64,000 nucleotides of DNA from NCBI GenBank assembly GCA_965662895.1, contig CBFIJH010000005.1:64001-128000 (forward strand). Direction: 5' to 3'. Below are positions 1 to 2,793 of the stretch, in pieces (the first letter of the stretch is position 1; every line of letters begins with the position of its first letter). Both the position numbers and the translations under genes were made by a program. The DNA is from Candidatus Poseidoniaceae archaeon (GTDB lineage Archaea; Thermoplasmatota; Poseidoniia; Poseidoniales; Poseidoniaceae). The notes under the pieces were generated by a model. That model was not told the DNA's origin. It made no database searches and saw nothing but the letters and a program-made list of their open reading frames with translations.

Positions 1-173
1 AATGTCCCTTCAATGACGTAAAAGAATTCATCCGTATCCGAGTGATTGTGCCAGACAAAATCACCCTCAACCTTGGCAATCTTGATTTGATAATCGTTCA
101 ATTCGCTGATGATTTTTGGTGTCCAGAGTTCATTGAACAAAGCAAATTTTTCATCCAAATTAATCTTCTTCAT
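1..173 (-). CDS. Cupin-domain protein (partial, runs off the left edge)
   Basis: Translated by hand, not in the ORF track: MKKINLDEKFALFNELWTPKIISELNDYQIKIAKVEGDFVWHNHSDTDEFFYVIEG. Contains the cupin motif WHxH...DE.F.V.EG. Confidence 0.85.
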   Translation of the reverse strand, partial: MKKINLDEKFALFNELWTPKIISELNDYQIKIAKVEGDFVWHNHSDTDEFFYVIEGT

Positions 174-294
174 GTCATTATCTCGTACACTATACTATTG
201 AAAAACTTTCCAGACTCGATTCAGATTCGACTCTCTTACATTTCTTTTCTTTGAGCCAATATTCATCCAACGATGTGGATTAAGTTAGAATACT

Positions 295-314
295 GGGTGT
301 GAATTACCCTCTAT
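295..314. promoter_or_regulatory. Putative operator, copy 1 (GGGTGTGAATTACCCTCTAT), directly before the wHTH start codon
   Basis: 16/20 identical to the reverse complement of 659-678. Has internal GGG-N9-CCC dyad symmetry. Confidence 0.55.
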
Positions 315-659
315 ATGGAACGCAGGCGTCGAGACCTCTCCGTGACCATCTACCGTATCCTCTTGTACCTCTCCAGAATGCGAGAACGCGATGCTGAATC
401 AAAGCGCTTGATGCGTATTGAACGGGCAACAGGTATTGAACGTAAGGAGTTGAAAATCCACCTTGAGAAACTCGTTGATGCGGGCTACGTCAAACAAATT
501 GACTCAGATAAGAAAGGACGGGGAGGTCACCCTATTGTTACCTATGACATTTTAGAATCCGGCCGAAGTTTACGTAGTGACATAGGCCGATGGATCGATT
601 TAGGGATTCGAATGAAATACTATCCAGACAATTTTTTCTATCTTCCGAGTGATGCCTGA
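315..659 (+). CDS. Winged-helix DNA-binding protein / transcriptional regulator
   Basis: 114 aa. HTH-like RIERATGIERKELKIHLEKLVDAGYV followed by a wing GRGGHPIVTYDILESGR. Confidence 0.75.
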   Translation: MERRRRDLSVTIYRILLYLSRMRERDAESKRLMRIERATGIERKELKIHLEKLVDAGYVKQIDSDKKGRGGHPIVTYDILESGRSLRSDIGRWIDLGIRMKYYPDNFFYLPSDA

Positions 660-678
660 TAGCGGGTAATTTAACCCC
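659..678. promoter_or_regulatory. Putative operator, copy 2 (inverted), upstream of the TATA box of the small-protein operon
   Basis: Reverse complement is GGGGTTAAATTACCCGCTAT. TTTATAT lies at about 698-704, roughly 23 nt before ATG 727. Confidence 0.55.
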
Positions 679-726: not shown

Positions 727-1002
727 ATGTCCGGAAAGAAAGCCGTAGACAAGGTCAGCAAAGGACTCGGTTCCTTAATCGATGAATTTGCTTCAGCCGT
801 CAAAGAGATGGTGAACGCTGGAGAAGAAACCGTTGTTCATCTAGCAGTTGGCTCAAGCCGAGTCATCAAGGCTGCCATCGATGCGACAGGTGAAGTGACT
901 AAGATCACCGTAGAAACCGCTGGCAACGTTGTCGGTTCGGTGGCACAAGGTGTGAAGAACGTCGTCGGTTCAAACGGGCAAAAAAAAGGTGAAGAAGAAT
1001 GA
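727..1002 (+). CDS. Small amphipathic-helix protein with 11-residue repeats
   Basis: 91 aa, no Pro/Trp/Cys/Tyr. Repeats: VSKGLGSLIDE / FASAVKEMVNA / GEETVVHLAVG / SSRVIKAAIDA / TGEVTKITVET / AGNVVGSVAQG / VKNVVGS. Confidence 0.8.
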   Translation: MSGKKAVDKVSKGLGSLIDEFASAVKEMVNAGEETVVHLAVGSSRVIKAAIDATGEVTKITVETAGNVVGSVAQGVKNVVGSNGQKKGEEE

Positions 1003-1178
1003 TAGGAAGATTGTTTGCAGCTACAATTGTTGCAGGAACTGTTGGACTAATGGCTGGCGTTGCATCAAGCACATTCCGCCATTATTATCGAAAGCATGCT
1101 GAGTTTGAGGACCTAAAGAACGATTCCATCCAGGAAGTCGTTGTCGTCACTGAATTCGTTGAAGGGGTGGAAGAATGA
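999..1178 (+). CDS. Small hydrophobic GxxxG membrane protein (59 aa, not in the ORF track)
   Basis: MIGRLFAATIVAGTVGLMAGVASSTFRHYYRKHAEFEDLKNDSIQEVVVVTEFVEGVEE. ATGA overlap with the upstream stop; GGTGA ribosome-binding site. Confidence 0.75.
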   Translation: MIGRLFAATIVAGTVGLMAGVASSTFRHYYRKHAEFEDLKNDSIQEVVVVTEFVEGVEE

Positions 1179-1348
1179 TTCCAGTTATTGTTGGTGGACT
1201 TGCAGTTGTCTCAGCAACGCTCAATGTTATGGCTGGAGCAGCAGCAATGGGCTCAGGATACGGAATCGGTCGCAAGTATGGTCGAAAGGTCTGTGAAGCT
1301 CTCGATGGCCTCGATTCAAACATGAAGAACATCCTCAAGAATGAATGA
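1175..1348 (+). CDS. Small glycine-zipper membrane protein (57 aa, not in the ORF track)
   Basis: MIPVIVGGLAVVSATLNVMAGAAAMGSGYGIGRKYGRKVCEALDGLDSNMKNILKNE. ATGA overlap; GGGGTGG ribosome-binding site; G28xxxG32xxxG36. Confidence 0.75.
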   Translation: MIPVIVGGLAVVSATLNVMAGAAAMGSGYGIGRKYGRKVCEALDGLDSNMKNILKNE

Positions 1349-1389: not shown

Positions 1390-2202
1390 GTGTCTGACCC
1401 ACTCCAAATCCCTTCCTTTCCGCCAGAAGGACCTTGGGAAATGTACGTTCTCGTACTGATCTGGTTACCATTTCTGTTCAGAACATTGTTGCTTACCAGA
1501 CCATTGTATCGAGTCATCAAGAAATTCGCTCCTCATGGAGGGTGGGCTATTCGGCAACTACGCGAATTACCGATCAAAGGACTCTCAATTCTGGTTCTCA
1601 ATGAATCTCTAGCATTTATGCTACCACCATTGACTGTTATCCTCTTCAGATTGAGGTTTGATCCAATCGGTTGGGATACTTGGGGAGAAGCAGGTTTCCT
1701 TGGATTTCTTCTTCTCTTGATTTTCTTCTCATTGTGGATTGTTTTTGATGCATTTAGAATTTTTCGGGTTCGAAGAATGCTGATATCTGTTGATCGATAC
1801 GATGTTGACAAATTGAAGAAAATCGCAGACGTAGGGATCAAAACTCGAAGATTTTTCAGGCGATTCTCAAGGAAAGAAACTGAGGATGGAGATGAAACAA
1901 CGGCAGTTGATGCTGCCTCTCGAGTTGGTAAACGAAGCGCAAAGGTGTGGGGACTTCGTGTACTGAAGATGCGGAAATTGAGCCCTGCTGGATTGCTTAG
2001 TTCAGTAGCTGTTGGGGCAGCAATCGAGGCTGCAAGGGCAGGAGCAGGAAAAGTGTCTGATATCATCGATGAAAAAATGCAGGAAGAATTTGACAAAGTG
2101 GCAAAAACAAGCACAAAGTCACTCCTGATTCTCTTCTTGAGAGATTTAGCGATGGCAGTATCCCCTTTGTTACTGTTCGCCGTTCTACCAATCATCCTTT
2201 GA
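1390..2202 (+). CDS. Hypothetical multi-pass membrane protein
   Basis: 270 aa, GTG start. Three to four hydrophobic segments around a long basic, amphipathic loop. Confidence 0.7.
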   Translation: MSDPLQIPSFPPEGPWEMYVLVLIWLPFLFRTLLLTRPLYRVIKKFAPHGGWAIRQLRELPIKGLSILVLNESLAFMLPPLTVILFRLRFDPIGWDTWGEAGFLGFLLLLIFFSLWIVFDAFRIFRVRRMLISVDRYDVDKLKKIADVGIKTRRFFRRFSRKETEDGDETTAVDAASRVGKRSAKVWGLRVLKMRKLSPAGLLSSVAVGAAIEAARAGAGKVSDIIDEKMQEEFDKVAKTSTKSLLILFLRDLAMAVSPLLLFAVLPIIL

Positions 2203-2250: not shown

Positions 2251-2793
2251 ATGTCCCAACTGACAACGGGTGACCTGGCACCTACGCTTTCCTTACCAGC
2301 GATCGATGGCTCAACTTTCAACATGGCCGAAATGAAAGGAAAACGTGTTATTCTGACGTTTTTTAGGTTCTCATCGTGCCCATTGTGCAACATGCGCATT
2401 CGCCGCATTATCCAACGATGGGATGAGTTCTCTGAGGATACCGTCATGGTCGCAGTTTTTGATGCGAAGATCGGGGAACTTCAGAAACGAATGCGAAAGC
2501 ACAATGCTCCTTTTGTTGTGGTTGCTGATGAGACGTATGAGCATTTTCAAAACAACGGTGTCAAAAAGTCGTTTTTCAAATTCTTGTGGGGAGCGATGCG
2601 TTCGCCATTGACACTGCTGCAAGCTACATTGAGAGGCTATGTTCCGCTGACTCTATCCATCTCCAAGTTATCAACCATTCCTGTTGACATTCTTATCGAT
2701 GAAGAAGGCACCGTCGTTGAGGCTCATTATTGCAAGGACACTGCAGACCATCTTCCACTTGAGAAAATGATTGCTTTTTCCAACGGTGCGTAG
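2251..2793 (+). CDS. AhpC/TSA (peroxiredoxin-like) thioredoxin-fold protein
   Basis: GDLAPTLSLPAIDG N-terminus, FFRFSSCPLC (CxxC), ILIDEEG. Confidence 0.85.
   Translation: MSQLTTGDLAPTLSLPAIDGSTFNMAEMKGKRVILTFFRFSSCPLCNMRIRRIIQRWDEFSEDTVMVAVFDAKIGELQKRMRKHNAPFVVVADETYEHFQNNGVKKSFFKFLWGAMRSPLTLLQATLRGYVPLTLSISKLSTIPVDILIDEEGTVVEAHYCKDTADHLPLEKMIAFSNGA

Follow-up and report, generated by a model that had tools for sequence, protein, structure and literature searches.

A conserved four-gene cassette of small proteins at a fixed chromosomal site in Poseidoniales, with a possible role at the cytoplasmic membrane

Asp23 of Staphylococcus aureus is a soluble, self-associating protein held under the cytoplasmic membrane by AmaP, a small protein of the same operon; the pair has a role in envelope homeostasis, and Asp23 forms polymers when the AmaP anchor is absent (according to excerpts of PMC6954212). 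Going by those excerpts, Asp23/AmaP is the closest functional analogue that we can name for a cassette of four small genes in a Candidatus Poseidoniaceae archaeon, in which the same logic is proposed for a protein of 91 aa (A) and two short peptides (B and C), encoded behind a winged helix-turn-helix (wHTH) gene. The cassette lies in a stretch of 64,000 nt of contig CBFIJH010000005.1 (hereafter the window; genome G000), and the gene following it is called c1. Unlike the staphylococcal pair, the cassette has two putative anchors and an archaeal host; the two systems share no sequence relation, and Asp23/DUF322 appeared in no scan. A second comparison concerns surface helices built from 11-mers, as in alpha-synuclein, perilipins, exchangeable apolipoproteins and group 3 late embryogenesis abundant (LEA) proteins. 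These helices carry a small or beta-branched apolar face with flanking lysines and acids on top, and their repeats are usually degenerate. A is like them in its unbroken 11/3 stripe of about 80 residues, and unlike them in being near-invariant on all faces and encoded beside two predicted transmembrane peptides and a regulator; the resemblance concerns mechanism only. Glycine-zipper proteins (YMGG, Rick_17kDa, transglycosylase-associated) are similar to B and C as short Gly/Ala-rich hydrophobic peptides, but neither B nor C matched any of their Pfam models, and the Gly run of C ends its hydrophobic stretch, beside a basic patch.

The cassette wHTH-A-B-C measures about 1.1 kb, is specific to Poseidoniales and occupies a single fixed chromosomal site. 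Its first gene (315..659, +) encodes a putative wHTH regulator of 114 aa, with weak winged-helix matches and a constant position before A. In the spacer of 67 nt that follows, a near-palindromic motif, GCGGGTAATTTAACCC (662..677, +), conserved upstream of A in 15 aligned loci, overlaps a TATA-like element. Gene A (727..1002, +) encodes an amphipathic protein with an 11-residue (hendecad, 11/3) repeat, as seen from its periodicity, register and substitution pattern; gene B (999..1178, +) a peptide of 59 aa with a hydrophobic Gly/Ala-rich N-terminal segment, a basic patch RHYYRK and an acidic tail; gene C (1175..1348, +) a peptide of 57 aa with an N-terminal hydrophobic segment ending in GAAAxGxGYGxG, a patch RKYGRK and an amphipathic tail. 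ATGA overlaps link A to B and B to C. Shine-Dalgarno-like sites read in the sequence precede B (AGGTGA, 987..992, +, 6 nt from its ATG) and C (GGGGTGG, 1164..1170, +, 4 nt from its ATG). An initial annotation of this DNA had chained the three open reading frames (ORFs) of A, B and C by such overlaps, with a ribosome-binding site before each of the two downstream starts; its coordinates are exact.

A, B and C are real protein-coding genes under purifying selection. In codon alignments of up to 16 loci, with only pairs of synonymous divergence (dS) above 0.1 kept, the median ratio of nonsynonymous to synonymous divergence (dN/dS) was 0.071 for A (74 pairs), 0.186 for B (59 pairs) and 0.238 for C (63 pairs), at a median dS of 1.6-2.0. 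Synonymous sites are saturated and the proteins retained; selection therefore acts on the proteins, and recent transfer or chance ORFs are ruled out. The two small ORFs are thus conserved, and no strong hit to a known unrelated family appeared; the C profile matches 154 clusters, all unnamed or labelled 'hypothetical protein', small ORFs that public gene callers had already called.

Where A has relatives in other genomes of the order, ORFs resembling B and C follow, with gene order and frame relations unchanged. The 4-nt overlap B|C is retained in 14 of 15 related loci, and GAGGTG-like sites before C in nearly all of them. At A|B, seven of the 15 loci have a 4-nt overlap, seven a gap of 2-4 nt and one a gap of 19 nt, where an alternative GTG start overlaps the stop and was probably missed by start picking that allowed ATG only; GGAGGA/AGGTGA-like sites before B are retained as well. 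In all loci whose sequence extends far enough upstream, the wHTH gene stands before A, which bears out its expected synteny with the small genes across Poseidoniales relatives, and it is missing along with A, B and C where the cassette is absent. By this conserved coupling and co-occurrence, wHTH-A-B-C behaves as one unit.

Distribution was assessed in 166 Poseidoniales genomes, each at least 85% complete (67 high-quality; 24 genera). A is present in 30 of them (11 of the 67 high-quality genomes; 7 of 24 genera): 26 of 101 genomes of its own family (G000 not counted), three of 63 in a second family and none of one in a third. C was found in 26 genomes (9/67 high-quality), all among the 30 holders of A, and in none of the 136 genomes without A; the holders of A without C are G024, G082, G086 and G095, and the contigs of at least G024 and G095 stop at the cassette. 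By comparison, c1 occurs in 118/166 genomes, 51/67 high-quality genomes and 22/24 genera. In a site-controlled count of 22 genomes of the own family, each with c1 on the + strand and more than 3 kb from the contig start, seven carry A. Close relatives are named Candidatus Poseidonia, Poseidoniaceae, Poseidoniales or 'Euryarchaeota archaeon' in the source databases.

Contigs of metagenome-assembled genomes stop inside A or at most about 250 nt past it in four loci (L004, L007, L019 and L027, from G024, G035, G096 and G095), and the same break pattern is seen in G034:C270:1-48 and G082:C55. A near-identical A shared by co-occurring populations, together with variable downstream sequence, may break the assemblies; if so, 30/166 is probably an underestimate of the frequency of the cassette.

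In cassette-bearing loci the cassette stands between a cupin gene and c1. The flanks are syntenic in 11 long loci, in the order ABC ATPase, FtsX-type permease, ABC ATPase, DUF3817, cupin (-), cassette, c1, histidine phosphatase and, further on, aldehyde:ferredoxin oxidoreductase and other genes. Reading of the DNA showed c1 without the four cassette genes in G075, G081, G085, G077, G002 and G065, with the cupin gene directly before c1 in the first three; the distance between the aligned cupin and c1 blocks is 124 nt in cassette-less G075, versus 1201 nt in cassette-bearing G101. Region scans gave no tRNA and no Rfam match, no flanking repeat signature was found at the cassette, and 49 pattern hits in IMG/VR viral contigs left none confirmed. 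A provirus or mobile element was rejected on synteny, the single fixed site and the lack of viral matches. B and C are 44-51% identical between genera, compared with 50-60% for c1; this similar divergence, like the chromosomal context, fits old, mostly vertical descent with repeated loss. The c1 tree places G101 (genus g16) inside a clade of cassette-bearing loci of g20 (support 100/99), which hints at locus exchange, and pairs cassette-bearing G064 with cassette-less G065 of the same genus (92/98). In genus g12 of the second family, the cassette includes one more gene between C and c1, for a fourth peptide of 55-58 aa that is Gly-rich.

The 11-mer repeat of A is genuine and far exceeds chance expectation. 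At period 11/3 (3.67), hydrophobicity power is 160.8, against 9.4 +/- 9.1 in shuffled sequences, a value reached in 0 of 2000 shuffles; periods 2 and 3.5 carry no signal. Self-similarity is maximal at lag 11 (z = 4.6), with lesser values at lag 33 (z = 3.1) and lag 22 (z = 2.0), and the register runs unbroken through residues 1-88, about eight hendecads in place of the 6.5 first counted. Positions 2, 3, 6, 7 and 10 are hydrophobic (V, I, L, A, T, F or M), the same stripe that had been described, under another numbering, as small or hydrophobic residues at 4/5/8/9. At position 4 the successive hendecads have K,G,K,V,K,K,G,G, and at position 8 they have D,D,N,V,D,E,Q,Q. Over the first 80 residues, the hydrophobic moment keeps its direction to within about +/-65 degrees, a constant phase at 11/3 pitch. 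A is thus a single straight amphipathic stripe: small and beta-branched residues make up a wide apolar face, with Lys along one flank and acids on top, a charge layout shared by class A lipid-surface helices. No signal peptide or transmembrane segment was found in A; the copy in the window is free of Pro, as noted earlier, and Pro in relatives is confined to residue 6 or the variable tail.

The A family comprises 312 clusters at 90% identity, and the best 120 of the 312 are 77-99% identical; residues 1-68 are nearly invariant, even in another family of the order. Mean conservation is 0.68-0.88 at polar-face positions and 0.79-0.95 at apolar ones; such similar constraint on both faces suggests self-assembly or contacts with specific proteins, not lipid affinity alone. 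The length of the tail differs among relatives. A run of eight A (980-987) falls within this variable C-terminal tail, and a contig from an RNA library of one relative has a 9-nt insertion just before it. A programmed frameshift in this run fusing A to B was considered and rejected: the B frame has TGA at 990-992.

B opens with about 22 hydrophobic, Gly/Ala-rich residues, followed by S-T-F-R-H-Y-Y-R-K-H-A-x-F-E-D-L, Q-E-V and the acidic tail; G20, H28, E46 and V47 are invariant in 16 aligned sequences. C starts with M-I-P and continues with about 32 apolar or small residues up to G-A-A-A-x-G-x-G-Y-G-x-G, then R-K-x-G-R-K, an invariant Cys, an invariant Asp and the amphipathic tail; its invariant residues are P3, G26, Y29, G32, G36, C40 and D44, and in the middle of the hydrophobic stretch most orthologues have Glu, where the copy in the window has Asn. 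The GxxxG segments, basic patches and charged tails described at the outset for both peptides are present and conserved. Each peptide has an apolar N-terminal stretch of 22-32 residues followed by three to four basic residues. By the positive-inside rule, the side of a basic patch is cytoplasmic; the predicted topology is one in which the tails of B and C should be cytoplasmic, on the same side as A. The initial annotation had also taken B and C for paralogues. A BLASTP comparison of the two gives E = 3e-4 with 12/45 identities; hhalign of the two family alignments gives a probability of 0.3% and E = 0.2, and the B and C profiles, searched against the genome at E <= 1, each recover their own single-copy gene only. 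A duplicated pair is therefore not supported by hhalign or the cross-profile searches; what the two visibly share is their architecture.

GCGGGTAATTTAACCC has a TATA-like core, and some 30 nt ahead of the ATG of A there is a second element, TTTATAT-like. No other copy of GCGGGTAATTTAACCC, with up to one mismatch, occurs in the 1.86-Mb genome (reversed control, 0 matches); it is a candidate operator of the wHTH protein. The latter matches MarR_2 (E 4.9e-4; 20.7 bits, cut-off 27) and, weakly over residues 7-85, HTH_34 and other winged-helix models, all below curated cut-offs; in PADLOC it gave only Csa3/CARF wHTH noise (E = 0.0085 and 0.038). These matches are consistent with a wHTH fold, with the family unassigned. 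A promoter and terminator scan returned nothing above shuffles, using sigma-70-type models that do not cover archaeal promoters. RNA libraries of four studies yielded contigs that cover relatives of A (88-97% identity). The first extends over 612-1176, with the spacer, A and B; another spans 982-1299 (B and C), with a diverged gap; a third 1123-1557 (B, C and the start of c1), likewise with a diverged gap; and one covers the wHTH gene. They are consistent with transcription of cassette relatives, and no expression level can be derived from them.

No curated Pfam or NCBIfam family scored above cut-off for A, B, C or c1, and PHROGs and PADLOC gave no match for these four. A profile of A, searched against 1.84 billion protein representatives at E <= 0.001, matched 31 proteins; 29 are short, and the five of these examined are members or fragments of the A family. 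No homologue of A outside Poseidoniales was accepted among the representatives. One of the five, P0247 (207 aa), joins an A-like part of about 68 residues at its start to ankyrin repeats and may be a real fusion or a chimeric assembly. Two NHL-repeat proteins, P0267 and P0269 (E = 4e-7 and 1e-5), match through many repeats of an 'AVKE..AGG.TTV' stretch; they were rejected as relatives because the periodicity of A is helical, with none at period 2, and the matches cover about 40 residues per repeat.

Among named families, Chlorosome_CsmC (PF11098) comes nearest to A in the window, at 12.4 bits and E = 0.17 (gathering cut-off 26.3), and it reaches E <= 1 in 6 of 23 A-family members (best E = 0.087). 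Phasin_2 (PF09361) was found in one of the 23 (E = 0.045) and not for A of the window; the Senescence domain in two of the 23, below threshold. In the Atlas, A scores 0.86 with CsmC and 0.81 with CsmB, with 149 features in common versus 170 typical of true family hits; TatA is also among the sub-threshold Pfam and Atlas look-alikes. CsmC and CsmB, the best named Pfam and Atlas matches, are like A in composition and repeat character, but they score far under threshold, and the host of A is an archaeon with no known chlorosome, chlorosome genes not having been searched for. We read the resemblances to CsmC, CsmB, Senescence, Phasin_2 and TatA as shared amphipathic physics and composition, not descent. 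Pfam models of synuclein, perilipin, apolipoprotein and LEA_4 gave no match at E <= 1 for A of the window or the 23 members. The best PDB match of the A-family profile is gp57 of phage 80alpha (6v8i), residues 975-1039 (E = 0.0023; per-domain E 0.048), a tape measure match that probably lies behind an automatic 'phage-related protein' label in one source. A tape measure identity was rejected: the match is one stretch of 65 residues, A has 91 aa, no PHROG or viral contig matched and the neighbours are cellular; A resembles the repeat region of such proteins only. As far as literature searches reach, at search-result level, there is no report of the A/B/C family, which is undescribed to that extent; amphipathic-repeat and small-anchor designs as such are already known.

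From sequence we infer the topology of B and C, the binding of A to them, its contact with the membrane and the function of the whole. [quoted passage not shown] In it, B and C would each cross the membrane once, with the short N-terminus outward and the basic patch and charged tail in the cytoplasm. A, cytoplasmic and probably self-associating, would lie along the membrane surface, where the B and C tails would keep it in place. Control of the operon would fall to the wHTH protein, acting at the near-palindrome immediately before A. Membrane protection or organisation, under a condition that only some species face, would be the likely role, and the complex would work by analogy with Asp23-AmaP or with surface helices of the LEA or synuclein type. 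A complex prediction for A with B and with C, made from alignments, gave ipSAE 0.00 and 0.00; run without controls, it has no weight either way.

Several points weigh against such a membrane complex. About two thirds of Poseidoniaceae species lack the cassette, and its function is therefore dispensable. The net charge of A is -1 (11 K+R, 12 D+E), which sets it apart from strongly cationic lipid binders. Its AlphaFold2 (AF2) model, from a shallow alignment, is poor (predicted local distance difference test, pLDDT, 56.7) and has helices at 5-30, 44-54 and 71-88 in place of a single long one. Wide-faced hendecads also form soluble right-handed coiled coils and helical bundles, and contact of A with the membrane is therefore not demanded by the data. 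No homology to membrane-associated families was found, so that the mechanism draws solely on the physics of the sequences; and the RNA-library contigs are no proof of transcription, since such libraries can hold DNA.

A rival reading has a soluble A, a hendecad coiled coil or bundle acting in the cytoplasm, for example as stress protectant or as ribosome or nucleoid binder, and only co-expressed with B and C as two unrelated small membrane peptides. Hendecad cores of the a-d-e-h type do form right-handed coiled coils, and the repeats, the slight acidity, the conservation of the whole surface and the split into three helices in the AF2 model would all suit it; we nevertheless consider it unlikely, as the strict association of A with B and C and the conservation of the 4-nt overlaps argue for one assembly, and no relative of known soluble function appeared among the 1.84 billion representatives or in the PDB. 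A role at a membrane or lipid surface is the most natural physical reading of the three sequences, and to that extent the interpretation first put forward is partly supported, although nothing points specifically to a lipid body or inclusion. That A coats a lipid or storage inclusion or a monolayer-bounded compartment, as perilipins, phasins and chlorosome Csm proteins do, with B and C as embedded partners, is distinctly unlikely. It would account for the broad apolar face of A, with its small and beta-branched residues in an 11/3 arrangement, and the sole named look-alikes (CsmC, CsmB, Senescence, Phasin_2) are inclusion-surface proteins, yet all of these matches are below every threshold and explicable by shared composition, and the invariant polar face of A contrasts with the loose conservation of lipid-droplet helices. 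The model of class III polyhydroxyalkanoate (PHA) synthase (TIGR01836) found nothing at E <= 0.001 in the genome of the window, which is 92% complete; the control was positive in 1 of 14 genomes, and the other PHA synthase classes were not searched. Wax ester synthase/diacylglycerol acyltransferase (WS/DGAT) gave no match there either, with a silent control and hence no information. The literature, again at search-result level, holds no report of inclusions in Poseidoniales, which are proteorhodopsin photoheterotrophs. Similarly improbable in our judgement is the bolder form of the argument, in which a synuclein- or perilipin-like A, polymerising on a domain of the membrane or on an inclusion of lipid or pigment, tethered by B and C and switched by the wHTH protein, would make a new archaeal coat of membrane or lipid surfaces; were it true, the most abundant planktonic Euryarchaeota of the ocean would have an optional subcellular structure, hitherto unseen.

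A membrane-active module, whether toxin, holin-like, bacteriocin or toxin-antitoxin, had been named at the outset as a two-peptide alternative; here B and C would form the damaging pair, the wHTH protein would repress it or serve as antitoxin, and A would act as inhibitor or chaperone. Such a module would be expected to have small hydrophobic peptides whose tails are charged and a wHTH gene of its own, and so would it be to form an accessory unit of about 1.1 kb in 30/166 genomes, patchy within every genus that has it, with the hint of locus exchange at G101. It has gained no positive support from PADLOC, PHROGs or viral contigs, and the single-copy cassette at a constant chromosomal site, with syntenic flanks and neither tRNA nor flanking repeats, does not favour it. 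Toxin modules typically evolve fast, whereas saturated synonymous sites and a divergence of B and C about that of c1 indicate old, mostly vertical descent under strong constraint, most of it on A; we regard a toxin as very unlikely. Equally slight is the chance that A, B and C are optional accessory subunits of c1. The latter is the constant downstream neighbour in every locus extending that far, and its product has cytoplasmic basic amphipathic helices and an Ala/Gly-rich helix; but c1 is far more widespread than A (118 versus 30 of 166 genomes), stands without the cassette in six of the loci read, and in cassette-bearing G064 pairs with that of cassette-less G065, and hhalign of A and c1 (probability 0.8%) found no similarity.

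Few archaea in the surface ocean are as abundant as Poseidoniales (Marine Group II); to our knowledge they have no cultured member, and their cell biology is almost wholly unknown. A trait that is lineage-specific, strongly constrained, seen in RNA libraries and optional (about one species in three) could mark an ecological or physiological split within the order. The cassette is also an example of conserved modules built from proteins below the usual ORF cut-offs, and if A should be a true coat of a membrane surface or inclusion, it would be a new archaeal case of the 11-mer design known from eukaryotic lipid binders.

Downstream of the variable cassette, after a gap of 41 nt, c1 (1390..2202, +) encodes a helical membrane protein of 270 aa. 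Its AF2 model (pLDDT 68.8) has eight helices. No Pfam, NCBIfam, PHROGs, PADLOC or fold match was obtained for c1; Foldseek against the PDB gave nothing at E <= 0.001 (best E = 0.34, BAR domains), the wide VIA-align search a best Z of 7.2 with generic helical proteins, inside the background for helical models, and the Atlas its own Thermoplasmatota clusters only. The gene is duplicated in tandem in genera g17 and g12 (L026 of G113, L029 of G056, L030 of G058), the second copies being divergent and forming their own clade (100/100). In G163 (second family, genus g23), a c1 at G163:C9:11125-11943 scores like those of the first family (E = 6.8e-134), beside a weaker copy of its own (E = 7.6e-37); the former could be a contaminating contig or a transfer.

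Beyond c1 lies an AhpC/TSA-type redoxin gene (2251..2793, +), whose nearest subfamily is 'SelL-related redox protein' (53.8 bits, cut-off 120); upstream of c1 in G167 (L043) there is a gene end resembling it. An antisense ORF of 304 aa (1533-2447, -), over c1 and the start of the redoxin gene, is probably spurious, with no family match or conservation signal of its own; it had supplanted the true gene when the longest ORF was picked. Upstream of the wHTH gene (window 1-320; G000:C5:56000-73000), between cupin and wHTH gene, the genome of the window carries extra ORFs of 225 aa (-), 357 aa (+) and 171 aa (+), which are missing there in most relatives; the site upstream of the cassette is therefore variable too.

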